Of a DNA stretch of 64,000 nt, positions 42,175 to 60,945 are shown in pieces. The DNA is from Pseudovirgaria hyperparasitica (lineage: Eukaryota). Where the stretch lies: NCBI GenBank assembly GCA_010093815.1, contig ML996585.1. One strand, 5' to 3'. A program made the position numbers and the translations under genes. The first letter of the stretch is position 1. Each line of letters starts with the position of its first letter. Below the pieces are notes generated by a model. The model was not told where the DNA came from and made no database searches. It was given only the letters and a program-made list of their open reading frames with translations.

Positions 42175-43395
42175 TTACTCCAGCTCAAAAGACTTGAAAA
42201 CATCAGTATAAAAACCGATTCTGCCCTCGAGATATAACCAAATTGCATGGGCTAAACTCTGGGTGTTCCAATGATCGAGCACTGTAGAGAGTTTAGAATC
42301 AAGCTGTCGCACGCGCTCCCATGTTTGGATAACTTCGATATATCTTTTCCGTTCAGCGAGTAATTCCCGATCTGACTCCGTCTCATTATAGAGGGGCCCG
42401 TCCATTACAGGTGGCACAATAGATAAATCTTTGATGAATTCGACCATCTCCCATGGAGCAACAATCGTATTCTCCCAATCAATTACACTTTGTATGCAGC
42501 ACATGGAATCCACAAGAATATTGCTTGTGTAGAGGTCTGTATGAATTATCGGAAAAGGCCCCTCCTGAAATGAATGGTGCTTTGCGAATTTGGCGAGTTG
42601 TGATGGAAAGTCTCGAATTGATATCAAAATCCGATCTACGAGATTGGAGGGTGTCCGTGCTCGAATTGTACTCTCACTGTAGGGAAACTTCGCACATTTC
42701 GCCCAAGCTTCGAAAAAGTCTGCGGCTGAGTCGAACGGTCCCCCAATTCTAGGGATTGGTCCGACTGAGTACTCTCCATTGGAAAGTTTGATAATACTTC
42801 CAATTTTTGGAAATCGTACTGACGCCAATTCGACCTATTCTTTGTTAGCCAACTGTCAAGGGAACGACCTGCTACACACCTGAATTTTAGCCATCCCAGT
42901 ATAAAATTTCCTCCTAAAAGGAGCAGGGATTTTGCCTCTGTGTACAGGCCATCCTCCAAATGAATCCATGGCGGTGTCCGCTGGAACGAATTCCATGATC
43001 ATGAAGGCAACACCTACAGCATTATCATCGCTCGCCTCGTACGTGAACAGTTCCGGAACAGGGATTCTAGATCGTTCTCGGATGACCTGAATTGTGTGGA
43101 CTTCATTTAACAACCGTTCTAGTGATTCAGGAGTGGCTTTCTGGAGCTGTAGACGTGCTACCCAAGTTGTTCCATCCTGAAAGTCGAGCCGCCGAACCAC
43201 GTGTAGTCCACCCATGTTGTATTCGGCAGAGACGTTGCAGGTTATTTCGCCGTCGTAATTAGACCTTTTACGCTTGAAGCTAATCGCGTATTCCTCCAGG
43301 GCCTTCCAATCGATGGGAGACGGTAAGCATTCCGAGTCAATGTTTGTTTTCCAGTTTAGTCGTGCTTCCCTTAAAACTACTTGTTGAGACGTCAT
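42175..43395 (-). CDS. APH-family phosphotransferase (kinase-like)
   Basis: MGGLHVVRRLDFQDGTTWVARL, IPVPELF, FMIMEFVP, FPIIHTDLYTSNILVD, VIDWE. Intron ~42835-42880. Confidence 0.85.
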
Positions 43396-43549: not shown

Positions 43550-43630
43550 TGTGCTCTGTGATCTGTGATCTGTGTTCTGTGATCTGTAATCTGTGTTCTA
43601 TGATCTGTGTTCTGTGTTCTATGTTCTATC
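43550..43630. repeat. 7-bp tandem repeat (tgtgatc/tgtgttc), ~11 copies
   Basis: Directly visible at the edge of the AT-rich block. Confidence 0.9.
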
Positions 43631-43846
43631 CGTTTGTCCATAGTTACATGAGAAAGCTTGGCAGTCGGTGCACGCTCATGTCGCGCGCACACGTTTTATT
43701 AGTATATATAATATTTTATAATATTATTAATAATTACTATATATATTTATAAAAATACTACTATATATTAGTTTTATACTATATTAGCTATATATTAGTA
43801 TTTTTTTAAGTATTTTATAATATCTATTATACCTTCTAAGTTAAGG

Positions 43847-44095
43847 AACTTCTTATATCCTAAGAGACTAAATAGATTAATCCGAGGTAATACAGCGATT
43901 TATATATATTAATTAATAGAGTATACCGAGTATAATAACCTCTAATATATATAAAGTATATAAAACGTAATATTACTAATATATAGAGATACTAAATATA
44001 TATACTTAAAAACTCTTTAAAGATATAAGTATAGACTACTACTACTAAATACTAATATACTAACTCCCTTTTTATTAGTTAAGAATAGCTATTAT
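43847..44095 (+). mobile_element. 5'-end fragment of Tad1-like LINE
   Basis: Near-identical to 46176-46202 plus 46788-47010, and similar to the 5' end of the full LINE at 55658. Confidence 0.75.
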
Positions 44096-44603
44096 AGAAA
44101 TATAATATATATATAAATATAAGAGTATTTATAGAATATAGTAAGTTTAATAAGAAAGAATACTAGAGTTTACTTAGCTTTCTTAAGATATAGAATAGAG
44201 TATACTATTAAAAAGAAACTTACTTAGCCTTATTAAGTAAGAAGAGAGTAGTAGTATAGATATAGTACGCTAGTATTAAGTATATCTAGAGTCTACTCTT
44301 AATATTATTCTCTTTCTCTATCTCTTTATTATTAGAGTCTATTCTAGTAATAGACTACTTATAAGTAAGTATTATCTAGCTTATTAATACTAGCCTTCTA
44401 GGAAACTATTTTTTTAAAGCTACTCTCTTATACTTACTTATTATAGTAGTAATTACTATTAACTTATAGTAATAGTTATTATTATATATAATACTCTCTA
44501 ATATAGGCCTTAGCGACTAGACTTAATATCTACTATTAGATTATAGTATATATACCTTCTATTAAAAGAATCTACCTATTAAATCTATTATAGATTATTT
44601 ATA

Positions 44604-45537
44604 GGCCAGGTGGCGTAGTGGTAGTATGCTACGTTACTAGAAGCGTTTGTCATCCAACGTCGTGGGTTCGAATCCTATAACGGCCATCTTTTCACACACT
44701 AGTTTTCGCACGCTCTATTAAAAAGTGTGCGGGGCTAAGCGAGTACGTGACGTGAAGGTTACTATTACATGACTACTTAGTCCTAAGCGACCATTAGGTA
44801 ATGTGAAAATGACTATACCGTTATTATATAATAAGAATTACCTAATATAGCTACCTACTAAGCCACCTTAAGTGGTAGAGCGACGCCTAGAGCGGCTAGA
44901 CCTATAACTAGCTTAGCTCGAATCATAGAATTTTCACTATATACCGGGGCCTTATCTACTCTAATCCGGCTTAGCTTATGCTTACTCCGGCTCGGTAACC
45001 ATAAAATAGATAGTAATACCTAATTAAGTATCCCGCCTACCCATAGACGATTATATAGCCCCGAAGAATAATTTCCGAATTCGGCCTAGCTAGGGTTAGT
45101 ACTAAGGCATGGACCTATTAGATATACACCCCCTCTAGCATTAGTTATCTTAATTAATAACTACTACCCGGCGTAAAGCTATATTCCCATAGATAGGAAA
45201 AAAACACGGTAATATAGGAATAAAAGACTAGGCCTAGCCTAGCGACCTACCTAACCATAAGAAAGGTAATACCTACTATAGTTGGTTAGGGCGTTATTAA
45301 GAGCCGGTACTAATATAGTAATAAAAGCCTAATATAAGGATAAGAAGTAAGTTTATCACCTAATGGGATTCGAGGACTTAGACTAGGCTAGGTTAGGTTA
45401 GTAATAGGGTCTAGTTAGGGAGCCAATCATAGGAGGTTTTCTTATATACATAGTAGCTAATACTAGAGGAGGCCTGAGCCTGTGGAGCATATATATGGCT
45501 ATATATATAGTTCTTCCTAGTTAAACACTAATATTAT
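44604..45537 (+). mobile_element. tRNA-derived SINE (~934 bp) with LINE-like 3' tail and 18-bp TSD
   Basis: Head 44604-44686 has A box TGGCGTAGTGG, B box GGTTCGAATCC and cloverleaf-like stems. (TAT)n tail. TSD tattatagattatttata at 44586-44603 and 45538-45555. Confidence 0.85.
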
Positions 45538-46202
45538 TATTATAGATTATTTATAGAAGATAGTTTAATTTCTAGGTTAGTAGCTTCTTTTATATCTATA
45601 TTCTCTAGTACTAGATAAATAACTATTCTTCTATAAATAACTTCTAATATAATAGTATCTATTATTATATTAGTAGTAATAATTATTACTATAGAATAGT
45701 AGTAATCTCTATTATTACTATATATAGTACTTTCTATAAGCTAGACTACTTAGACTTAATATATATATTTATATAGTAAGTCTAGTAAAATTCCACTAGC
45801 TATACTATCTATATATCTACTTTAATTTAGCTCTATATCTTCTTAGACCTTAGCTCTATACCTTCTTAGACCTTAGATCTATTATTAAGTATAAAGAAGA
45901 AAGAGTTTAGTTCTTTAATTAAGAACTAATTTTATATTAATCTATCTATACTAGGTACTTCTTAGTTAATAGAGTATCTATTATTATATATACTAGAACC
46001 CTTTACTTATCTATTAAGAGTATATAAATAAGAGTTATTTATATATGTTAGAGTTATATATAAATAGATACTTATATATTATAGATATCTTATTTATAAT
46101 ATTCTATTTATAAAGGTCTATTTATAATTTTAAGGGGAAGTTTAATAAGGTATTTATATATATAAATAGAAAAAAAACTTCTTTATACCCTAAGAGACTA
46201 AA

Positions 46203-46782
46203 TGTAAGGAGGCGGGCTCCACGCACCAACCAACTACACCAAAAGGACCGAATCTTGAAGCTACTGCTTCAAGGGTAGAGCACACTACTTATATACGACT
46301 ACTGCACACATGTAGAATTAACTAGCAGGCCACGTGCCTAACAATATCTCCCCTTTTCGAAGGCGCGTGTCCTTACGCGTCGTGGGCATACTACCTTACG
46401 AAAGATAAACTAAACTAGCCGTAACGGGCCTAGTATAAATGATATACACACACAACCAATACTCGTAATGCCGCCTCTAGTACTAGACACGCTAACTTAC
46501 CGTAGTAACGTTACTACCATGTTATCCGTCACGTGTATAAAGTACACGTGACGTAGTAAGCTAAACGGAATCATGTAAAATTTAATAATAGTTAACTAGA
46601 CCGAGAGTTAAACCCGTGGCCCCATAGTAGCTTTAAGATTATATAAGGAGGCGGGCTCTATATACTAACCAACTATACCAAAAGGACCGAATCTTAAAGC
46701 TACTGCTTTAAGGGTGGAGTACACTACTTATATACGACTACTATATACATGTAGAATCAACTAGCAGGCCACGTGTCTAACA
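46203..46782 (-). mobile_element. TRIM (miniature non-autonomous LTR retrotransposon), 580 bp
   Basis: 141-bp LTRs at 46203-46343 and 46642-46782 (TG...CA, differing only by transitions). 5-bp TSD ctaaa. Polypurine tract aaaaggggagatat on the minus strand abutting 46343. Confidence 0.92.
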
Positions 46783-47058
46783 CTAAACTAGTTAACTTAG
46801 GGTAATATAATAATCTATATATATTAATTAATAGAGTATACTAAGTATAATAACCTCTAATATATATATATATATAGTATATAAGATATAATAATACTAA
46901 TATATAGAGATACTATATATATATACTTAAAAACTCTTTAAAGATATAAGTATAGACTACTACTACTACTAAATACTAATATACTAACTCTCTTTTTATT
47001 AGTTAAGGGTAGCCCTTAACTAATAACTATAGAGGCCTTAGATACTAATATACTCTAG

Positions 47059-50000
47059 TATAAGGATTATAGACGTAGGATAGTAGTCTAATAGATCATA
47101 GGAGGATTCGGGAATATATTTAAAAGGGTAGTCTACTCTCCTAATAAGGTTAATTCCTAAAGAGTAGGAATTAAGTATATGCGGCCTACTTATATAGTAG
47201 TCTCACTTATTCTAGCTAGATTACCCTAGGTCCACCTATTACGGACTATACTAGACTATAGTATTCTAGTTAAGTCTATCCTAGTATTAGCCCTAATAAT
47301 ATCCTTCTTCTTTTTATACTTTGCCCCGAAGTACTTAGCTATATATAAATCTATAATTCTATAAGCGTTATATTTATACGCATATCTAATTAAATCTATA
47401 TAACGTTATTAATAGTCTTTATATTAGTAAACTTAAGCTCTAGTTTACTTTTATTTATATACGCGCTTATCCCTTACTTTATAGCTACTACCTTAGAGGT
47501 AGCTCCGTGGGTTATATAACCACTATATTAACTAAGCTTATATTTAGTTCTCTTATTCTAAATTTTCTTCTCTAGTATATCTATCTTACTCTTAAGGTAA
47601 GTCATTAATTTATATACTATCTTCTTTAGTTTAGATCCGTTCGGGTCTAGAGTAGTCTATTTTTATTAGAGCTAGTCCTATATAATCTATTCGCGTTATT
47701 ACGGTTACTAATTTAGCTTCTTTAATCGTCTTTAAGACTAAACGAGTATTCTACTCTTAGATCTCTAGCTAACATATATATATAGATATCTAATACTAGT
47801 CCTATTTCTAAGCCTACCTCCTCCTCTTATAAGACTCGCTCTAAAGGGATTACCTCTACCTCGGCTATACCGGCTAAAAAATCTACTTATTATAGTAGTA
47901 TAAAGGCGCGCTCTAAGTTAGAGAAGAAGGTAGCTAAGGCTACTACTACTATTACTACTAACGTAGCTACTAGTTACTCTAATCTAGGTAATCCTAGTAC
48001 TAGTATTACGGAAGAGATAGCTATAAAGCCTACCTATATCTACTCGCGCCGTCTATCTACTCTATCTCCTTTAGAGGATAAAGAAGATCTCGTTATAGAT
48101 AATAATTAAGAGTTTACACCTTTACCGCCTCGCTCTAAATACCGTTCCTCTTTTCGGTCTAATATAGACTAACTTAGTTACTCTAGGTCCTTTTAGGACC
48201 TTAATATTTACTCTAAATCTAGCCCTAGTAATAATAAGGCCTAGGTCGCCGAAGATACTAAACGTAGTCGTGGTTTACGCCATAGAAAAACGGCGAACTA
48301 TAGTTTAATATACTTTAAGTATATTAAGACTTACGCTACTAGCTCTAAATATCTCTTCCGCTCTAACTCTAGTATTAGCTACTACTCTACTAACCGCGAC
48401 GGGCCTATATATCTAATCTTTAAGCTTCCTACCCGCTACCACCGCTATACTATCCTTAGTAAAGTTTATCTTTAGATAAGTCTATTAGACTATTTTAATC
48501 TAGGGTAATCTAAAGTTATCTATACTAATACGTTTTTAGATTTCTATTTGTGTATAAGATATATATAACGATCTTCGCGTCCGCGAGACTCTTAGCGGTT
48601 CTAGCGGTTATCTAGCTTCTATATATAGAGAGTTTAGAGAGTACTATAAGCTCTTCCTAGAGGTTATTAAAGTATAAGTTTAGAAACCGTTAATTATTAT
48701 TAACCTTAGCTTATAATTTTTAGTCGCTACGAGATTCCTAGCGCTTAGACTATCTATTCTAGGGAGTTGGTTTTAGCTACTAAGGCCGTAGAAGAGATTC
48801 GTACTATTCCTTTCTACCTACCTTATACTACTAATAGGTCTTATAAGAGATCTACTAGTTCTCCTTCTAAGTTACCTCGTAAGAGGATATATATTCTATT
48901 CTAGATTATTCTAGACCGCGTTAGCTAACTTTAGGTCTAGTCGCTCCGCTCTAGCGCTTAGTTATCGTCTTACTAGGCTCTAACTAAGCGCGTGGTTACT
49001 CTAGAGGATAAGGTCTCTAACCTCTATCGCTCTATTACTCGGTTAGTTCGTTCGCTACGCTCTAAGAGTAATAATAAGATAGAGGAGTAGCTCTATGGCT
49101 CTGTTTACTAGGGTTTCTATATAGTATATATTAGCTCTATCTACCTGGTTTCTATCCGTTTTAGTCCTTTTTAGACCGTTTAGATACCCGTCTACTAGTT
49201 TTCTAGTAATTTAATTCTTAACTTAATAATATTATATACGTTCTTATTTATTCTATAACTATTAAATTTTAGGTTCTAAATTCCTTTAAGTTACTTAAGT
49301 ATAGGTATCGTATATAAATTAGTTTATCTCTCTAAATTATATTAGAGCACCCGAACTAGTAGCCTAGTAGTTATCGGTTTAGGTACTCTAACCTTTTATA
49401 TTATATATCACGAGTTTAATTCCGTAGTAGGGTACCTTTTTAGTTTCTTAGTCCCATGTTCTTCTTATATATAATAGTCTATATTAGTCTATTCTAGACT
49501 TCTCTATATTATTCTATTATAATATATCGCGTCGCGTATCTATAACGGTTATTTACGTTTTCTTCGCGTTTAGTAACTATATATCACTTAAATTATAGGG
49601 CTACCTTATAGAGTTTTCCTAGTATACGTTTAGGATTCGTAATTCGATACTTCGTTCTCTATAGTATCCTTCTTCTTTTTACGACGGCCCTAATAGCGCT
49701 AGGTTTATAGTAGTAACGTGTTATTCTATAACCTCTATTTATATATAGCTATCGCGGTACTTAAGATATATACTATAGGTTTCTAGGTGTTCTTATCCTC
49801 GGTGTAGTTCTTCTAACGGATTTAATACTTTTAGATACTATTTTCGTTAAGTCTATATTCGATAATATAGTCTACTTTATATACGTCTAGTCTATCTTAG
49901 GGTATAATAGAGTATAATTATACGTTCATGCGTTTATATATATTAGGTTGAAACCTTTTAAGTAATAAGATGTGGAATATATTATAGACTTTTATATTGT

Positions 50001-53000
50001 TTCCTAGGTTAAGCTCGTAGACTCTTATACTAATATAACGTTTGATTCGGAAGGGACTAGCTATTTTATAATCGAGCTTTTTATTTACTCGTGATGTTTA
50101 TATATTACGGACGTTAAGGAGGACTTTGTCTCCCTCCTTATACGATTAATCTTTAACTAATCTATTATAGTACTTTATATACGACTTATTCGCTTACTAG
50201 ATTATTACGCGATAGTTACGTACGGTTTTAAAGATTTTAATCGCTAGTTTCTACGTATAGACGTTAACATCTATCGTTTAGTCGAACTAGACCATATAAG
50301 GTTTAAAACCTATCCTTAGACTATATTCTAGGTTCGCCTAGAAGGGCGTAACATCTATTATACTATAACGACTATTATTATACGCGAATTCTACTATGCT
50401 TAGTAGAGAGGCCTAGTTATCTTATTCGAAATTATAGAATACACGAAGGTAGACCTTAAGTGTTTAGTTCTATTACTCTATCTAACTATCTATTTATAGA
50501 TGGAATGCTATTAATATATTTCTATTTATACTAGCTATTTCGTAGAATAACGTCTAGAATTTAGACGTGAATATACTCCCCTAGTCTATAATAATCCTTT
50601 TTAGTATACTATAGACCTTAATAATCTTATTCTAGAATACTTATACTAGTTCTTTTAATATAATCGTCTTCTATATAGGGACGTACCTAGATATCTTTAT
50701 AAGTCTATCCACGATAATAAGAATTAAATTATAACTTATTCTAAGTATCTTACTTAGAGGTAAGTTAACTATAAAATCTATAGTAATATCTTCCTATATA
50801 AAGAGGGGGACTAGTAGAGGCTATAAGTTCCTATATAGCTTATATCTAGATGCCTTTATTCTTTAATAAATCGGATAAGTAGCTATCTATTCTTCGACGT
50901 ACTTAGGTATATCTTTCTAAAAATAGTACTAACGAATCGAGCTTAGGGTGCGTATATACCCGAAATATCCTACTAGGTTAGCGTTATGGTATCGGCTAAC
51001 TACGGTAAATCGTGTATTATCTATCGGTATATAGTACTTTCTATTATAGTAGAGTAAGCCGTCTATAAAGGTCTACTTATAGTCTACTTCGGTCCGTAAT
51101 AACCTATCTTACTATATTTTACATAACTTTAAAACTATTAGGTCTATCTTTTATAGATCTATAATTAACTAGGTAAGGTCTACTTAATATATACGCCGGG
51201 TACTATCGCCCTCCCTAATAGCGCTAATAAATGGCTCGCTAGGGACTTCGGTACCGCGATTTTAGTTACCGGCTTCGGTCTTATAAATTTAATTACCGGT
51301 ATTAGCGTTAGTATCTCGCTAATTATCGGATAACTTATTATCTAACCTCGTCCTTAAGAGTTAGGCCTATAGCTACTCTAGGACCCTATAGCTACTATAA
51401 TCCTAGGCGCCTTCTTTATAGTTAGGTCTTCTTAATATTCTATTAGCTAGGTTTATACTTCTAGGTCGATAGTAGATTATAAAGTAAAAGTTCGTAAGCT
51501 ACTTAGCCTATTAGACCTATCGATGATTTAAAACCGTCGTGCTTATAAACCCCTTTAAGTTATAGTAATTAGTTAGTAACTTAACGTTATACATAGTACC
51601 TTTAAGATAATATCGCCACTACTTAAACGACTCTACTATTACTAGTAGCTCTTAGTTATAAATAGTATATCTAGTCTCGACGTTAGCTATCTTACGCAAG
51701 AAGAACGTAACTAGATACTATTAGACCTTTTTAGACTCTATTAGTCTAGGCTAGAAGAGTATACCTAAGATTATAAATTCTAATGCATTAGTTTCGACGC
51801 GAATAGATTTAGTTAGATCGAAGTATACTAGTAATAGGGCGGTTATAAATGCTTCTTTAATCTTCTTAAAGGATGTTCTTTCGACCTTAGTTAATTTAAT
51901 AGGTTATGATTTAATATTATACTATTTCTATCTACCACGGACCGTAATAGACGAGTTAGTAGTAGTAGTACATGTATTAAGTAGTGCGGCTAAACGGGAG
52001 AAGTATTTAATAAATTTTCGGTAGTAGTTAGCGAAGCTAATAAAGACACGTATATCTCGAATGGATTTTAGTTTAGACTAGTCTATAATAGTAGTAACTC
52101 TATCTCTCTCTATAGTTATATCTTAATTAGTAATAACGAAGCTAAGAAAGTTAATATAGTTCTAATAGAACTCGTATTTAGATAGCTTAATATATAGCTT
52201 ATACTTTTCTAGCCTATCTAGGACTATACGTACGTGCTAGATATACTCCTCCTCGTTATCTAAGAAGATAAGGATATTATCTAGGTATACAATATATGTC
52301 ATGTCGAGTAGGCCTACTAGCGCGTTATTAATATACGCTTAGAAGGTGCCTAGCGCGTTAGTTAGTCTAAAAGGGACCACGGTATACTTAAAGTATCTAT
52401 AACGGGTCCTAAAAGCCGTTTTCTATTCGTCGCCTTCCTTAATACGAAGGTAATAGTAGACGTTACATAGATCGAGCTTAGTAAAGATCTTTATACGTCC
52501 TAGTCTATTAATAGACTTAGAGATAAGAGGTAGTAGATAATAATTCTTTCGCGTGATATTATTTAGGCTATAGTAGTTAATATATAGACGGAGGCTTCTA
52601 TTCTTCTTCTTTATAAAGAGAATTAGAGCTCCGGCTAGGGATATACTAGGTCTAATCTATTCTCGCGTAAGGTTCTTTTCGATATATTCTCGAAGGGCTT
52701 ATAACTTAGGTTCTAAAAGAGGGTAGATAGGTCTATATAGAGGTTACTAGCCGTCTTTAAGATTAATAGTAAGGTTAGTAGATTAGTATTAAGGTAGTTT
52801 AGAGGAATCGATTGCTAACGCAATATATTAGTATATTTTATACTAATATAGTAGGTTTTCGTCTACTTTAATACTAAGCTCGCTATTTTATATAAGTAAG
52901 AGTACGTAGATAGTAGAGATTACCTTCTTATAATCTTTCTAGAATTATTCGTCGTCGATAAGCTATACTAGTTTCTATTAAGGTAGGTTTATACGCTAGC

Positions 53001-55069
53001 TAGCTATCTTCTTAAGGAAGTCTAGTTTTAGATTATATTTCTTAAGCTATAGTATACCTAGAATTATGTCAAAGGGACTATCTACCATAATAAAGGTTAA
53101 GTAGTAGAGTTTCTATTTCCCTCCGCTATTCTAGATACTATATTTAATAGTATAGGTACTATATAACTTAATAGGACTATCGATACTATAGAATATGGCA
53201 CCTATTAGAGCTTAGATATCGGCATTAAGTTCTTATACTTATTAGGTCGATATAACGTTAGTAGCCGACCTACTATTAAGTATTATAGTCTAATATTATC
53301 CACGAGAGACCTTAATAGGTCTAGCCTATAGTTTAATATACTATTTAGCGGATTACCCCTCTATTATAGTCGCGCCTATAAGTCGCGAGGGTTTCTTATA
53401 GGCTATTAGTTTTTTATATTTTATACTAGGTAGTTAGGCGTGATGTATCCTAGCTACTAGTACTTATAGTATATAACTAGTTAGTTAGTTATATTAGCAC
53501 TTAGTAGCTTCTCTAAACGGTACTTAGGTGCTATATAGTCTATTCTACTATAGGTATAGTAAGTAACTTTAGGTCGTTTATATAAGTCGGTCCTTATATC
53601 TCGATATATTAATTAGTAGGGAGATCTACGATACGATCCGCGTGGTTTTAAATTCGAGACGTAGTAGTAGCCTTATAATATCCCGCGAGATCTATTACTA
53701 AATCGGTTTTAGTTAGACGATTTTATGTTAGATTAGATTATTAGAGATAGTTATATACTAGCGCGGCGTTAATTATTTATTATATACTAGTATCGCTCCG
53801 TAAGGTTTATAAGAGCTTAGAGGTCTATAGAGATTATTATTATAAGGTTAAGATAGTCCTTTATATTTAGGGCGAGGGACCGTTTAAAGTTATTATACTA
53901 TTAAATTATATAATCTTCTTCGGCTTCTCTCTAGAGAGGCCGAAGGTATTTAAGGAGTTATAATAGTAACTAATTATCTCGTTATTAAGTCTCGAAGATA
54001 TAGCCCTAGGCCTAGTCGCGTCGTTTAGCCCTATCGCTAAAATATTAGAGGAGAAATTTGGTAAACGTATTCTAGTTATAGGTATTCTTAGAATATTTAA
54101 TTTAGTATACTATCTAACGTTCTAAAGACGTCGGGTTAAGGTAGTTCTAGACGAATCTAATTTTATCGCTATCGTTCGTGAATAGATAGAAGAATCGGCT
54201 ATATTAGTAAGCCTATACGTGGAAACTCTTTCTACTTTTACTATTAAAGTAAGGTAGTTTCTTAGGTTGGGGTAATTAGGATAGTAGTAGACTAGAATGG
54301 ATCGTTTTAGTTAGTATAGGTCTATATAAATATAGATTAGTCGTTACTAGAACTAAAGCGCGTAATATAGCTTTAAGTCTCGTAGTACGTTCTTAAGCTT
54401 CGTCGAGTTTACGTAGTTATTACTTAAGTTAAATCTATTATTACCTCTCTTCGTATAGTCTAGTATATATATTATTATAAGGTATAGTTAATGTTAGGCG
54501 ATTCTAACGGATTAACTTATTAATATTAATAAGGTCTAGCCTCGTGTTAAGGTTAGGTCTAGTATAGTTTAAACTAGACTAAGATAGAGTATAATAGACT
54601 CTATCCTCGTATTCTATAATATCTTCTATAGTTATACGGAATATCGTGCGAGTTATTAGTACGATAGCCTATAAGATATAGTTATTAGTAGGGGTAGTTA
54701 TAGATAGACTATTCTCCTTATTTAGGTTAGGAGAAGGTCTACTATAAGAGGCGGTGCCACGAGTATTATAATGAGTGGTTAGAGCTATTTCTATAAACTA
54801 CCGTCGTGCTATATAAAGAGAAATTAAAATATAAGGATTATAGACGTAGGATAGTAGTCTAATAGGTTATAGGAGGATTCGGGAATATATTTAAAAGGGT
54901 AGTCTACTCTTCTAACGAGGTTAATTCCTAAAGAGTAGGAATTAAGTGTGTGCGGTCTACTTATATAGTGGTCTCGCTTATTCTAGCTGGCTTACCCTAG
55001 GTCCACCTATCACGGACCGTACTAGACTATAGTATTTTAGTTAAGTCTATTCTAGTGTCAGCCCTAATA
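47059..55069 (-). mobile_element. Ty3/Gypsy chromovirus LTR retrotransposon, RIP-inactivated (~8.0 kb)
   Basis: 240-bp LTRs at 47059-47298 and 54830-55069; PPT at ~47299-47316. Minus-strand relics: gag zinc knuckle (~53430-53475), RT VYLD(D)ILIF (~52265-52290), chromodomain (W)KNYTED(E)NT(W)(E)P (~49778-49818). TSD is imperfect (tctag/attag). Confidence 0.92.
47786..49090 (+). pseudogene. spliced antisense accessory gene inside the Gypsy element (~396 aa after reversing RIP)
   Basis: Exons 47786-48475, 48540-48673 and 48724-49090 total 1191 nt in frame. The first 107 codons are stop-free and internal stops are only TAA/TAG. Donors read ATAAGT (RIP of GTAAGT), acceptors TTTTAG. Confidence 0.72.
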
Positions 55070-55657
55070 ATTAGCTTCTACTAGATATATCTCTAACCCT
55101 AGTATAGTAGAAAGAGCTATATAATAGAATATTCTAGAATAATTAAACCCCTATCTAAAAGATAATAAATAACTAAGAGTATAGAGTACTATAGATAAAG
55201 AAGAAAGAGAGAACTCTAACTAGAGATACTCTTCTAGATAAAATTAACTACTAAATAATATATATAGAGAGAGAGATTAAGAAAGATAAGATTACTCTTC
55301 TTAGTATCTTCTAGAGTCTAGTCTAGAATATTAGAGAGCTTACTATAAGAGTAAAATAAATACTAGAGATAAGTCTAGAATTAAGGTTAGACTAAATTAA
55401 GGCTAGCCTATTAAGAATCTAGGAAGGCCTTATCTAGAAAAAGTATCTAACTACCTAGGCCTAAGTTATAGTACTATTAGATAGTATAACTAGAATAATC
55501 TAGATACTAAGAATATCTATAGAAGAAGTATATAGTTATTATAGCTATAGTAGTAGTATATATTATATATAATTACTATAGGTAGTAGTAAACTAGTTAG
55601 ATATATAAATATAACTAACTAGATATATAGATAGAAAATAGTATACTTTATAACTAA

Positions 55658-58600
55658 AAACTTCTTTTACATCCCCAAGAGGCTAACTTGATCCATTTAG
55701 GGTAATATAGCGAGATACACACCTTAATTAATAGAGTATACCGAGTACACCAACTACTACTATACGCACGTACGTGTAGCGTCGAAACCAAGACGTTATT
55801 ACCGTGTAAAGATATATATACACCCTCTTAAAATCCTTACGGAGATAGAGGCACGGACCACGCTACTAGAACGCCGACACGCCGACCCCCTTTTATTAGT
55901 TAAGGGTAGCCCTTAACTAATAAATATAGCGGCCTTAGGTACCGATATACCCCGGTATATACTGGATATACCCCTACCGGTACGATAGAAAAGGCTATAT
56001 AGCGATATTACTAAGGGTAACTATATATCTATCTAAAACGTAGAATATACCTAAAGGCGCACGCCGCTATAGATAGACGGAATAAAGGGGACCCCGAGAG
56101 GGGAAACCCTCCTAGATTATATTAACTACTAGATAGCACGTATAGAGAAGGAAGCCGGAGAGGGCTAGAAGACCCTTCTATATATATTCTAGAACCTTAT
56201 CTAGAATCTAAAGGGAATTATAGAGGAGGAGAAGAAGATATAACTAGGAGGACCGGAGGGGAGGCTCGACCAAATAGAGGCTAGCCTATATAGAATCTAG
56301 GAGGAACTTACTTAAGGTAAGCGCCCTAGTATATAGATATTAATAGTAGTAATACCGGAGGCTATACTATGGGCCCCCTAGACCGGCGACGTAGCGTATA
56401 GTATACGCGTCGTAATCTAGGATAAGGATACCCTAGTATAGGTCTAGTAAGTATCCCTAAAGGATATAGTAAGTAAGATTAACGAATAAAAGGGAATATA
56501 GTTAAACGTCGTCGCCGCTAAACTCACGCTAGAAGGAGTAGTACTTACCATAATAATAAACATTACGTAGTAGACTATCTCGCATAATCCGAACGCGATT
56601 AGTAGTATCTTTCTAGGCGCCTCTATTAGGGCGGCCATATACCCGATATAGGTATACTCTATACCCGTAAGCGGATAGGTTATTAGAGAAGAGGGCATCA
56701 CGCGGATAGAATAGTTAAATAAGCGAAAATACCTAGAAATTAAGATCGTAAGAGTATAGTAGAAGAATATATAAGGGATTAAAACCAGATCGAAGGCACA
56801 CTCTACTATAATAGTAGAGCTTAAGGACCCCGCCCTCGCGTATTAAATTATATAAGAGGGATTCCTAGCGGAAGGGGAGCTTCTTATAGCGGAACCATAG
56901 GATAGAGTATAGGCGATAATATAGTGCTTTAACTATTAGGGATATAGGTATACGGCATAGCGGTACTCCTAAAAGACTAGGTATAGATGGTATCGATAAG
57001 AATATAGTACCTAGGAGTGCCTCTACGGGATATAAGAAGAGGGCTAGAGGGATAGAGATATAGCGAAGTGCTCTAACTACGACGGCAAGCACCTATCGTA
57101 GTCGGCTACGTGCGCGAAACGTAAATAGGTTACTAAATACATCTACTTAATCTAGATAAAGGGAGTAAGGTAGCTATAAACGATGCGACCTACTACCGTT
57201 CCTCTCTTTACTATAATACTACTACTATAGACTACCTCCTTATAAGGAAGCGGTTAGGAATAGTAAACCGTCCTAAGAAAGCTAATAATAGGACGGCCCT
57301 AAGGAATTACTAAGGCCGCCGCCGTACGAGGATAGTCGCGTCTTAGAGGAATGAATATACAGGCCTATATATTCTCTAGCACCTAATAAGAGACTAAGAT
57401 ATACTCCTAATTATATAGGTAAACGTATAGTATAAACGTAAGAACTAGGTGATACTCCTTAAGGAGACCGGAGCTATAATACTCGCTATATAGGAGCTAT
57501 ATAAACACTACTAGACGAATAAACTAATAACACACCTAGAATATTATATAATACACCCCCTAGGACCGGAGAGGAGAGTCCTCTTCCATGTCTATAAGTC
57601 TATTCTACTCTTATTATAGTCGTATACTAAACGGGATAACCTCCGGATAATACTACACCTCTAGACGAATATCGGACCCCTCTATATACATAATATATAT
57701 AATTAGAACCGATCGCTTTAGGCGGATAACATGCTTAAGGATACTACCGAGCTAGGATAACACATCCTCCTAGGAGACTTTAACCTCTATTATAGCTAGT
57801 AGGGTAGACTAACCGTCACCCGCGAAGAGCTTCGAGCTAGAGAACTACGCATCTAATACTACGGCTTTCTATACCTTCTTATACTAGTAGGATAGATTAC
57901 CTAGTGAAAACATAAATAAGATAAGGGCGGATCTATACTCGACCTTACCCTAGCCACTAGACATATTTATAATAGGACTTAATACTACCGCCTAAGCCTT
58001 ATATAGATAGACTCCGACCACGAATATATAGAGACCGTAATAGACGTATCTACCCCTTAAGACTAACGAGGGCGATAGCTATAGAAGGATACTAACTAGG
58101 AAAAGTACCTAAAGGACCTGGAATCGACGATTCTAGACCCGTCTATAGTCGACATATCTAATGGCCCGGCCATTAACTAGGCCGTGAATACACTCCTATA
58201 GACGTACTAGGGAGTAAGAGATAAACACGTGCCATACCGAATATATAGACCCCTAGACCTAAAAAGTATACCTTAAGTGCGAGAGCATAGGCGAGAAGTC
58301 TAGAGATTATATACACGCGTATACTATAACCATATATCTAAAGCGTAGGATAAATAGAGAGAGACGAGAAGATAATAAGATAAGGTCCTCCGTAATGAGC
58401 GACATAAATAGTAGTATATAGTTACGGATAGACATACACGTAATACTACTAGACTATAGCATATGGTAAAATGGGCTAAAAGCACCGCCTCCCCAACACC
58501 TATACCACTTATACCCCCCCTTATATATTAAGAAAAGATATACTCTATAAGCCTCGAGAAAATAGAGATCCTATAAGAGATTATATTCCCTCTTCTAGAA

Positions 58601-60945
58601 CCCGTAGACCTATTAGATATTAACGGTACGGAATACCCGGAAGCTATAAGTATCTCTAGGGAAATCACGGACGACGATATACTCGGCGCTATTAAGATAC
58701 TCCCGAACGATAAAGCGCTTAGGCTAGACGGAATTCTAAATCGATACCTTAAGAGGACTATATAGGCGACCTTACTAATTATAGGCTATATATTCCGAGC
58801 GTGCGCCCGTATAGAATACTACCTATAGAGCTTCCGAACCGTATACACGGTTATACTCCTAAAACTAGGGAAGAGCCTAAACACGCTAAAGGGATAGAGG
58901 CCGATCGCCCTCCTCTTCTACCTTAGTAAGGTACTAGAAGCTACGATTACTAAGAAGATAAGTATAGTAGTATAGGTATACGGCCTTCTCCTAGTAAACC
59001 AGAAGGCGAAGGTAGGAAGCTCCCTAATTATAGCTATTTAACACATCCTTAAGGTCATCTAGACTACATAGAAATAAGGACAAGTCATTACGCTACTCTC
59101 CCTAGACATAGTAGAGGCGTTTAATAAGGTAAACCATATAAGACTTATCCATAACCTCCGGATAACGCGAATACCTAAGTAGATTATACGATTTATATAG
59201 TCCTTCCTCGCGTAAAGGACTACTTAAATATATATCCCTAGATACCGAAGCGAATATAAGGAGATAGTATACGGCATCCCGTAAGGGAGTACTATCTCCC
59301 TAATCCTCTTCCTCTTCTTTATAGTAGACCTCCTTTAGAGAATAGAATATATAGAGGTAGTTAGATACGCGGACGATATATACCTCCTTATAGTCGATAG
59401 TAGTACTAGTAGAATATATACACGACTCGAACGAGACCACGAGAAATACGTCTAGTAGGTAAAGCGCCACGGAGTAAAATTCGCACCTAAAAAATACTAG
59501 CTTATATACTTTATTAACTACTATAGAGGATGGGCTACTAGAGAGAGGGCACGTCGCCCCTAAATCAACGCCTTTATAGAACCACTAGTATAGAGTATAC
59601 GAGCACTCGGCGTTATAATCGATAATAAGCTAAAATAGGGACCATAGGTAGCACACGCCGTCTCTAGAGCCCTCTAGATAGAAACCGCTATACACCGGAT
59701 TACGGTATCCACGTAGAGAATAGCCCGGGATAAGGCGAGATAGCTATACATCTCCCTAGCACGCCTAGCCTTTATATATAGATACGAGTGCTAGTATACG
59801 GCCCTTATATAAGCTCGGCGGGTAAAGCTTAAGTCTATATAAAACCGTATACTCCGCCTTATCTCCGGCGTATATAAAGCTACTAATATAACACTCCTCT
59901 AACGCGAGATAAACGTAACAAGTATATAGGACTTCTACTAGATATAGAGACTTATATACTTTACTAAATAATAAGTATAAGAACGTGGAGGAGATAGGGT
60001 ATATACCTTCGCTATACTACGTACACGTATCCGCGCGTATTACTAGGCCCTCCCTACTATAGAATAAACTCGAGTATAATATAAATACTATATAGAGGCG
60101 GACTCGAGCTAGACCGCGTAGAAGGTTCGAAATAACCCGGATACCGTCCTAAGCTAATAGAGCCCTAAGGAGCTTAGCCGCGTTATACGGTCGTGGATCT
60201 AGAATAAATAGAGGGAGGTACTTAAAGTCTAGTGGGCCTCCTAATAGGATAGGTATCTAGAATAGATCCGAGGGCCTTAGAAGGAACTAAGTAAATAGAT
60301 ATATAAAGGGCTAACGAAGGCCTAAGCATCTATACTCCTCTAAGCCCGAATAGGCGCTATAGGTCTTCTATATTACCTCTACTAGAGAGGCGTTCTAGAT
60401 ATATCTCCCTAGTGTAAGGACTACGGCCGGAGAGGTATAATACGCTACTACCTCGCGACGTACTCTAGCCTCTATACCCTAAGATAAGCCCTTATCCGTA
60501 TAACGAGGACCTCCGACATCACGTAATGGCTTAATAAGTACTCTAAGGATGTCGCCCGATAGATGCTCGTATACCTTCCTCTCCCCTAGTTCTAGTAGAC
60601 CCGTATATATATACCGGAAGAAGCCCGATATATACTAGAAGAACCCCGGTATACGTCGGAAGAACCCTAGGAGAACCGCGATTATTAGTTAAGGGTAGCC
60701 CTTAACTAATAATCTCCGCACCTACACGTGCTACCTAAGGGTAAACTATTATAATATAGGCTATAGGCCCATAGGTAGCCCCTAGGGCTATATATATATA
60801 AAGAACGAGAGGATAGATAGAGCGTAGTCATAGATATGAGGGAGTTTTTCCTATTCATAGGTTTCTTCTTATATAGTAGCTTAGACTAGAGGAGGCATGC
60901 GCCTATAGAGTGGTACTCTACCTAGTTTACTAATATTATTATTAT
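55658..60945 (+). mobile_element. full-length Tad1-like LINE (ORF1 with zinc knuckles; ORF2 APE endonuclease + RT), RIP-inactivated
   Basis: 16-bp TSD tatactttataactaa (55642-55657 and 60946-60961). ORF1 CFN(C)..GY knuckle at ~56924. ORF2 LLGDFNL (~57768), DSDH (~58010), RPIALL (~58898), GIP(Q)GS (~59273), YADD (~59366). (TAT)n tail. Confidence 0.92.

Follow-up and report, generated by a model that had tools for sequence, protein, structure and literature searches.

In a window of 64,000 nucleotides (nt) from contig ML996585.1 of the fungus Pseudovirgaria hyperparasitica (assembly GCA_010093815.1), the minus strand carries a Ty3/Gypsy chromovirus, a long terminal repeat (LTR) retrotransposon of ~8.0 kb (~47059-55076) that has been degraded by repeat-induced point mutation (RIP). 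Here we analysed the spacer between the end of its pol gene and its 3′ LTR, and with moderate confidence we read the segment 47786-49090 on the plus strand, opposite to gag-pol, as the relic of a spliced antisense accessory gene that belonged to this chromovirus family and was killed by RIP. Judging from the sequence, the product of this gene was most likely basic and rich in Ser and Thr, with a coiled coil at its C-terminus. The gene is dead in the copy analysed, with 14 stop codons in its frame, ATA in place of the ATG start codon and AT in place of GT at the donors of its coding region, and it therefore has no present function for the host.

Such a gene had been proposed earlier for this window (the original prediction), and all of the coordinates and sequence signals on which that proposal was built could be reproduced, including the exons, the introns of 64 and 50 nt and the length of 397 codons. 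The parts of the gene model are as follows, GC being given as a fraction.

47316-47596, plus strand: putative promoter and 5′ untranslated region; GC 0.26-0.27, like the non-coding flanks
47513-47519, plus strand: TATA-like box, TATATAA
47597-47785, plus strand: putative 5′ intron, 189 nt (GTAAGT at 47597, GCTAAC at 47768, TAG at 47783-47785); GC 0.296
47786-48475, plus strand: exon 1, 230 codons, starting with ATA at 47786; 5 stops; GC 0.377
48476-48539, plus strand: intron 1, 64 nt (ATAAGT ... ACTAAT ... TTTTTAG); GC 0.234
48540-48673, plus strand: exon 2, 134 nt, in a register that differs from that of exons 1 and 3; 1 stop in 44 codons; GC 0.358
48674-48723, plus strand: intron 2, 50 nt (ATAAGT ... 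TTAAC ... TTTTTAG); GC 0.20
48724-49090, plus strand: exon 3, 367 nt, ending with TAG at 49088-49090; 8 stops in 122 codons; GC 0.406
49091-49700, no strand assigned: non-coding remainder of the spacer; GC 0.302

After splicing the model amounts to 1191 nt, and its stops (4 TAA, 10 TAG and no TGA) make up 3.5% of all codons and 2.2% of those in exon 1; the first 107 codons are free of stops, as had been claimed, and every later stop is TAA or TAG. Read without splicing, the exon-1 frame contains 23 stops instead of 14, and the surplus lies within 48476-48723. The start ATG, the GT donors, the intact frame, the leader and the TATA box of the former gene we infer. As for the TATA-like box, the word is present where it had been reported, as one of 28 TATA[AT]A words on the plus strand of the spacer, and at that frequency it carries no weight.

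Coding-like signal and putative splice sites in the spacer

No frame of 43600-55600 holds a longer open run than the 107 codons at the start of exon 1 (the next ones measure 89, 77 and 76 codons), and a run of at least this length has a probability of 0.009 in 2000 first-order Markov simulations of the spacer. The phase of TA dinucleotides, which are a product of RIP, was analysed as well. In pol these dinucleotides concentrate where the third position of one codon meets the first of the next, and in exon 1 they do so more strongly than in pol, with 42 of 62 and 38 of 63 at this boundary in the two halves of the exon (chi-square p=4e-8 and 8e-6, respectively); no tandem repeats were found in exon 1 that would explain the periodicity. 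Across exon 2 the phase moves in the expected direction without being significant, it returns in the first part of exon 3 (48724-48900, p=0.025), and it is absent from 49091-49700 (p=0.7-0.9).

The base composition changes along the same model. The leader, the 5′ intron and the 3′ flank have a GC fraction of 0.26-0.30, as against 0.36-0.41 in the exons and 0.20-0.23 in the two coding-region introns, and no exon window was as GC-poor as the introns, whether taken at 64 nt (0 of 1002) or at 50 nt (0 of 1044). A local open-frame score, which allows up to two introns, reached 276 on the plus strand with splicing and 210 without it, compared with 198 for the true pol; the null, taken from 100 simulations, was 122 +/- 36 with a maximum of 257, and the spliced plus-strand score exceeds all of these simulations. 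When the three donors were combined with any YAG (Y, C or T) lying 45-200 nt downstream, giving 648 intron combinations, the proposed model ranked 5th and the 12 top-scoring combinations all used intron 48476-48539. For intron 2 an alternative acceptor at 48762 scores equal to the one in the model.

The placement of the donors follows the exon boundaries. On the plus strand of the spacer the word [AG]TAAGT occurs only at 47597, 48476 and 48674, which are the three donors of the model, and on the minus strand of the spacer it occurs at 47890 and 48334, both inside exon 1, where the register is unchanged. Over 12 kb the same word is found 19 times on the plus strand and 23 times on the minus strand. 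Both coding-region donors read ATAAGT in this copy, and that of intron 2 is preceded by T, the canonical RIP context for a change from GT to AT.

At the 5′ end, the segment 47390-47596 precedes the 5′ intron and, read in the register of exon 1, is rather open, with 2 stops among 69 codons, and has a weak TA phase (p=0.02), and an alternative first intron of 54 nt (47597-47650) scores slightly better than the one of 189 nt. Since both candidate introns are multiples of three and keep the frame, an upstream coding exon is possible, and the GC fraction of ~0.27 in 47390-47596 argues against it.

The carrier element and its family

Contigs from two DNA runs of the same organism (X1 and X2) were placed on 46900-55200 at an identity of at least 80%, a procedure that gives no copy number. 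There were 24639 such contigs from X1 and 9037 from X2, all 30 bins of the region were covered, and the depth over the spacer was similar to that over pol. As the spacer is covered like pol in thousands of contigs, we conclude that it belonged to the master copy, which was later amplified and then RIPed. This supports the spacer as an integral part of a much-repeated family and answers the concern, raised together with the original prediction, that it might be a one-off insertion. At the X1 variant places 608 of 635 changes are transitions; among the 40 variant places listed, from a total of 724, those in the spacer have the other letter in 23-35 X1 contigs, and seven small indels were listed. 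None of the three proposed introns is excised at a contig joint in X1 or X2. One X2 contig joins 47296 to 48274, representing a variant without 47297-48273, that is, without the leader on the side of the polypurine tract and most of exon 1. Two further runs, X3 and X4, have next to nothing on the region.

The DNA around the element is heavily altered: the GC content of the window is ~50% up to ~43 kb and ~30% from there on, and this AT-rich part is heavily RIP-mutated, with RIP indices in the element of 1.77 (TpA/ApT) and 0.13 ((CpA+TpG)/(ApC+GpT)). We scanned all six frames of 47001-55200 with Pfam, reading stops as X, and found retroelement domains exclusively on the minus strand; their order between the LTR pair, reverse transcriptase (RT), RNase H and integrase, is that of Ty3/Gypsy elements. 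The element has the following parts.

47059-47302, minus strand: 3′ LTR, a direct repeat, its inner edge uncertain by a few bases
47303-47315, minus strand: polypurine tract-like run adjoining the 3′ LTR upstream; the plus strand reads CCTTCTTCTTTTT, with the purines on the minus strand
49701-54829, minus strand: gag-pol, RIP-degraded, recognised by Pfam domains and homologues
~49730-49860, minus strand: chromodomain-like stretch, ending at ~49725, from the readable text of the RIPed frame
49950-50133, minus strand: SH3_Tf2-1 (Pfam)
~50850-51015, minus strand: Integrase_H2C2 (Pfam)
51486-51888, minus strand: RNase H (RT_RNaseH_2 and RT_RNaseH, Pfam)
~52134-52614, minus strand: RVT_1 (Pfam, E 1e-17)
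54830-55076, minus strand: 5′ LTR, direct repeat of the 3′ LTR

The two LTRs, of ~245 nt each, are 85-91% alike, and an empty site is represented by same-organism contigs that join 47041-47059 directly to 55072-55081. The RIPed pol has 309 homologous proteins (best E 1e-185), and its frame contains 69 stops in 1001 codons (6.9%), all of them TAA or TAG, with a longest open run of 77 codons. On this frame the Pfam family Chromo did not reach E<=0.01; the chromodomain family PF00385 is present in most of the pol homologues listed, and the named ones include Curvularia clavata, Curvularia being a genus of the Pleosporales. With the end of pol at ~49700-49725, the spacer up to the 3′ LTR measures ~2.4 kb, so the long gap described in the original prediction is real and its size of ~2.2 kb was slightly underestimated.

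Several other features were observed around the element. The Gypsy copy sits inside an older repeat, pieces of which (43886-44089, 46801-47062 and 55639-55959) are 88% alike and lie on both sides of it; the contigs with the empty site represent this repeat in its uninterrupted form. A largely palindromic word of 31 nt is perfectly conserved in three places of the RIP-diverged DNA (46996-47026, 55893-55923 and 60682-60712), and two of the four X3 contigs placed on the region match at this word. Near the Gypsy copy there is a relic of a non-LTR element of the long interspersed nuclear element (LINE) type, with Exo_endo_phos_2 and RVT_1 domains, at 57680-59555 on the plus strand (GC ~0.40), and at the border between GC-normal and RIPed DNA a frame at 42456-43167 on the minus strand matches the Pfam APH phosphotransferase family (E 1.7e-7). 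The element had no megablast match among plasmids, and Rfam gave no match.

The predicted product and the competing explanations

The N-terminus encoded by exon 1 is rich in Ser, Thr, Lys and Arg. Exon 3 holds in its plus frame the stretch LTKRVVTLEDKVSNLYRSITRLVRSL (48980-49057), made up of four heptads whose eight a/d positions are all Leu, Val or Ile, with polar residues in between; this pattern, defined after the stretch had been seen, has a single match among 40648 windows (3571 of them stop-free) in the six frames of 20 kb. The proposed coiled-coil tail thus retains a four-heptad core. A KLPRKR cluster lies in exon 3, 36 residues upstream of the heptads, and the 25 residues directly before them contain only 2 Arg. 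There is no adjoining basic region of the kind that characterises a basic leucine zipper (bZIP), and no bZIP family of Pfam matched exon 3 at E<=1.

A Cys/His-rich core had also been proposed, and here only part of the claim stands. The model translation of this copy contains 1 Cys and 2 His. Its residues 161-230, encoded by the last 70 codons of exon 1 (48266-48475), comprise 11 Tyr, 2 His and no Cys, a Tyr content of 15.7% compared with 8.6% in the RIPed pol. The Tyr enrichment is present, and the Cys and His residues of the proposed core therefore come from reading Tyr codons back: TAY codons can derive from TGY or CAY by RIP, or from true Tyr. The product may have bound zinc if these Tyr codons are taken as former Cys or His codons, which is the one basis for that suggestion.

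Relatives of the spacer were sought by tblastn, with all of its frames, in 79 metagenome loci that have a related pol and in 14 loci of a viral collection; nothing was found below E 0.008, and the best matches were in frames other than those of the model. An LTR pair surrounds pol in 12 of the 79 metagenome loci, and in 10 of these 12 the distance from pol to the 3′ LTR is 162-1379 nt. Two loci, L028 and L033, have gaps of 2301 and 2449 nt and belong to one family (79-84% alike) of elements of 8.8-8.9 kb with short LTRs. Together with L002 this family has the RT closest to ours among the 79 loci, at 41-45% identity to the RIPed query. Its gap contains a Cys-rich antisense open reading frame (ORF) of ~159 amino acids, longer in some copies, on the minus strand of the three loci (L002:7059-7763, L028:14222-14936 and L033:14186-14899). 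The ORF is found in 3 of the 79 loci, antisense in all three, and in 23 database proteins, and its copies differ mostly by RIP-type changes (C/Y, R/C/W/H, S/F and D/N). It has no Pfam family, its AlphaFold model was unusable (pLDDT, the confidence score of the model, 34.8), and the best score in the ESM Atlas was 0.80, the level of chance. An attempt to reverse RIP from two copies of this sister family failed, as indels jumbled the frames.

The sister family and the element in our window have in common a gap of 2.3-2.4 kb with an antisense ORF, whereas the sister ORF is shorter and its introns, if any, are not evident. A shared CxxC...TSSK...CxRC-like spacing, seen by eye between the sister ORF and the Tyr-rich stretch of the window, failed testing. 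The RIP-aware alignment of the two scored 53-61, compared with 80 +/- 13-16 for other RIPed frames and 61 +/- 7-8 for shuffled targets, hhalign gave a probability of 0.07%, and in a transition-tolerant DNA alignment nothing rose above the shuffles. The architecture recurs in the nearest family, which speaks for an antisense gene here, as do the precedents described below; we draw no homology from this recurrence.

Several results weigh against a former antisense gene. A HMMER search with the plus-frame read-through among 1.84 billion representatives found no real homologue; a match to a saposin-repeat protein (E=4e-4) aligned to intron read-through and was discarded as spurious. Pfam had no family on the three exons at E<=1 and none in the six frames of the block at E<=0.01, exon 3 had no match among PDB sequences (best E 0.27), and five tests revealed no significant likeness to the sister ORF. 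Exons 2 and 3 are individually weak in coding statistics, the 6.6% of stops in exon 3 alone not being clearly below background, and the heptad pattern was chosen post hoc. The element as a whole (11 in 8017 nt) leads one to expect three donor hexamers in 2.4 kb, and these hexamers were presumably the basis on which the model had been drawn. The donor of intron 1 is preceded by G, a non-canonical RIP context for a G-to-A change; this is made less awkward by the six copy-specific transitions among the spacer variant places listed, all of which lie in non-CpA contexts. Finally, the codon-aligned frames of the two strands mirror each other in stop density and in TA phase, and neither of these measures decides the strand.

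This symmetry leaves room for a minus-strand gene, a third sense ORF downstream of pol whose mirror would be the plus frame. Periodic Markov models of order 0 or 1, trained on pol and the neighbouring LINE ORF, recover the registers of the model in exons 1-3 and score the minus frame above the plus frame, by 19 nats in exon 1, 5 in exon 2 and 8 in exon 3, and over exon 1 the minus frame has ~10 stops in 230 codons, fewer than pol. The same models separate the strands weakly in controls, however, by 5-16 nats per 1500-1950 nt (a model of order 2 was rejected as over-fitted and confounded by strand composition), and the open-frame score of the minus strand, 143, falls within the null, the plus strand reaching 210-291. 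On the minus strand there are no donor-like sites at the register changes (48476-48539 and 48674-48723), and RIP makes no indels that could produce these changes. Moreover, the heptad core exists in the plus frame only, and the minus-frame translation of the block has neither a Pfam family nor a match in a word-based search of protein databases. We consider coding by the sense strand very improbable.

It is also conceivable that the block was never a gene, being non-coding filler or regulatory DNA in which frame, periodicity and motifs arose as chance products of RIP. RIP yields TA-rich DNA of low complexity with many TAG acceptors and ATAAGT-like words, and the missing homologue, the missing intact frame and the weakness of exons 2 and 3 would all fit. 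Chance is made unlikely by the agreement of independent measures (open run, TA phase and GC steps) on the same boundaries, by an open-frame score above every simulation, and by the uniqueness of the heptad core. A different origin would be a host gene, or part of one, captured in antisense by the master element and carried as passive cargo with no role for the element. Introns and a distinct GC level, both present in the block, are what one would expect of a cellular gene, the presence of the block throughout the family fits a capture before the burst of amplification, and capture of ORFs has been reported for bdelloid and plant elements. Yet no cellular homologue of the read-through appeared among the 1.84 billion representatives, whereas the equally RIPed pol has homologues down to E 1e-185; a conserved host gene would probably have been detected, and a fast-evolving one would escape. 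In addition, transduced ORFs are usually present in one or a few copies, and family-wide ORFs are taken as genes of the element (PMC11963269). To a cargo gene we assign a low probability, and the reading that we prefer is still that of an accessory gene of the chromovirus itself.

Antisense genes of other elements and a possible role

As the original prediction claimed, the block has the behaviour of a gene killed by RIP, read from the opposite strand and interrupted by two short introns; what does not hold is the novelty of the plan. To place the gene outside the canonical plan of such elements was too strong, as antisense ORFs in the same place are known from Boty, Grande, RIRE2 and Retand. 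In Boty, an element of Botrytis cinerea and Sclerotinia sclerotiorum, the gene is brtn, reportedly described by Zhao et al. 2011 (Virology 417:248). It is antisense and lies between pol and the 3′ LTR (PMC8365987, PMC7264820, PMC4227169). According to these sources Boty is, like our element, a fungal Ty3/Gypsy element with an extra opposite-strand gene in this position; it has gag, zinc knuckle, protease (PR), RT, integrase (IN) and chromodomain, and the copies described there are intact, whereas the copy in our window is RIP-dead. The hosts of Boty are Leotiomycetes and the best named pol relatives of our element come from Curvularia. We liken the window gene to brtn by description only, and the HMMER search among the 1.84 billion representatives returned nothing that could be brtn.

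Plants have such antisense ORFs, again placed between pol and the 3′ LTR, in Grande gene23, RIRE2, Retand TRP28 and PvRetro13 (PMC7264820, PMC11963269). According to these two papers, their position and orientation are as in our window and most or all members of a family carry them; a nature as nuclear or DNA-binding regulators has been suggested for the products, the Grande protein being nuclear and Retand TRP28 being predicted to bind DNA (PMC11963269). The plant elements differ from ours in being non-chromoviruses (Tat/Retand) with gaps of 2.9-6.6 kb, as opposed to a chromovirus with ~2.4 kb, and most Retand ORFs carry the Pfam family TRP28 (PF04195, Transposase_28), which was not found on our exons or in the six frames, in a search whose sensitivity is lowered by RIP. 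The word "intron" does not appear in the texts of PMC7264820 and PMC11963269. With respect to the class aORF-3R, as set out in PMC7264820, our block lies in the gap between pol and the 3′ LTR on the opposite strand, contig coverage places it in most copies of the family, and in place of an open frame it has a frame with 14 stops and strong coding-like statistics. Boty brtn was the only fungal case of an antisense gene between pol and the 3′ LTR found in the literature searched, and in two fungal LTR surveys the word "antisense" was not found.

A more distant parallel is found in retroviruses. A spliced transcript driven by the 3′ LTR encodes the bZIP protein HBZ. HBZ and APH-2 are antisense genes of the deltaretroviruses HTLV-1 and HTLV-2 (human T-cell leukaemia virus types 1 and 2), respectively (PMC11963269), and they are, like the window gene, antisense at the 3′ end of a reverse-transcribing element and have nuclear products. 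The predicted window product would have C-terminal leucine-zipper-like heptads without an adjoining basic region and has no sequence relation to HBZ, and deltaretroviruses differ from our element in host and element class.

Under the accessory-gene reading, the gene on the master copy would have been transcribed from its own promoter at the 3′-LTR end, against the direction of gag-pol, and its two short coding-region introns, with probably a third in the leader, would have been removed only from the antisense transcript. The sense genomic RNA would keep the antisense introns, which would hence be found in every retrotransposed copy. Antisense introns survive retrotransposition since the genomic RNA is the other strand, and antisense-intron reporter cassettes follow the same logic. 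The product, of ~400 residues, would have a basic, Ser/Thr-rich and probably disordered N-terminal half, followed by a short stretch that may have been Cys/His-rich, the KLPRKR cluster and the C-terminal leucine-zipper-like coiled coil, and it could have served as a dimerising, probably nuclear regulator or adaptor acting on the element's own expression or silencing. To our knowledge, no function has been established for the antisense accessory genes of LTR retrotransposons.

A stronger form of this proposal, that a large chromovirus family, amplified recently in a Pleosporales-like fungus, encoded its own spliced antisense regulator, a basic, dimerising, possibly zinc-binding nuclear protein unrelated in sequence to brtn and the plant ORFs, is one that we put forward as a tentative and rather doubtful possibility. 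If this is true, the antisense genes of retroviruses would have a counterpart in fungi, with a promoter beside the 3′ LTR and introns preserved on the non-genomic strand, and the different antisense ORF in the gap of the nearest family would suggest a slot in which such genes repeatedly arise or are exchanged.

RIP-degraded repeats are as a rule masked, and genes are never sought in them. Taken together, the comparison of stop density with pol, the TA phase, the GC steps and the placement of splice signals can bring dead genes to light even in one RIPed copy. Should the accessory-gene reading be correct, the window would add a second fungal antisense case from another fungal class, widening the class of such genes to one with introns and a coiled-coil tail, and it would lend itself well to the question of whether such genes act in the regulation of the element or of its silencing.

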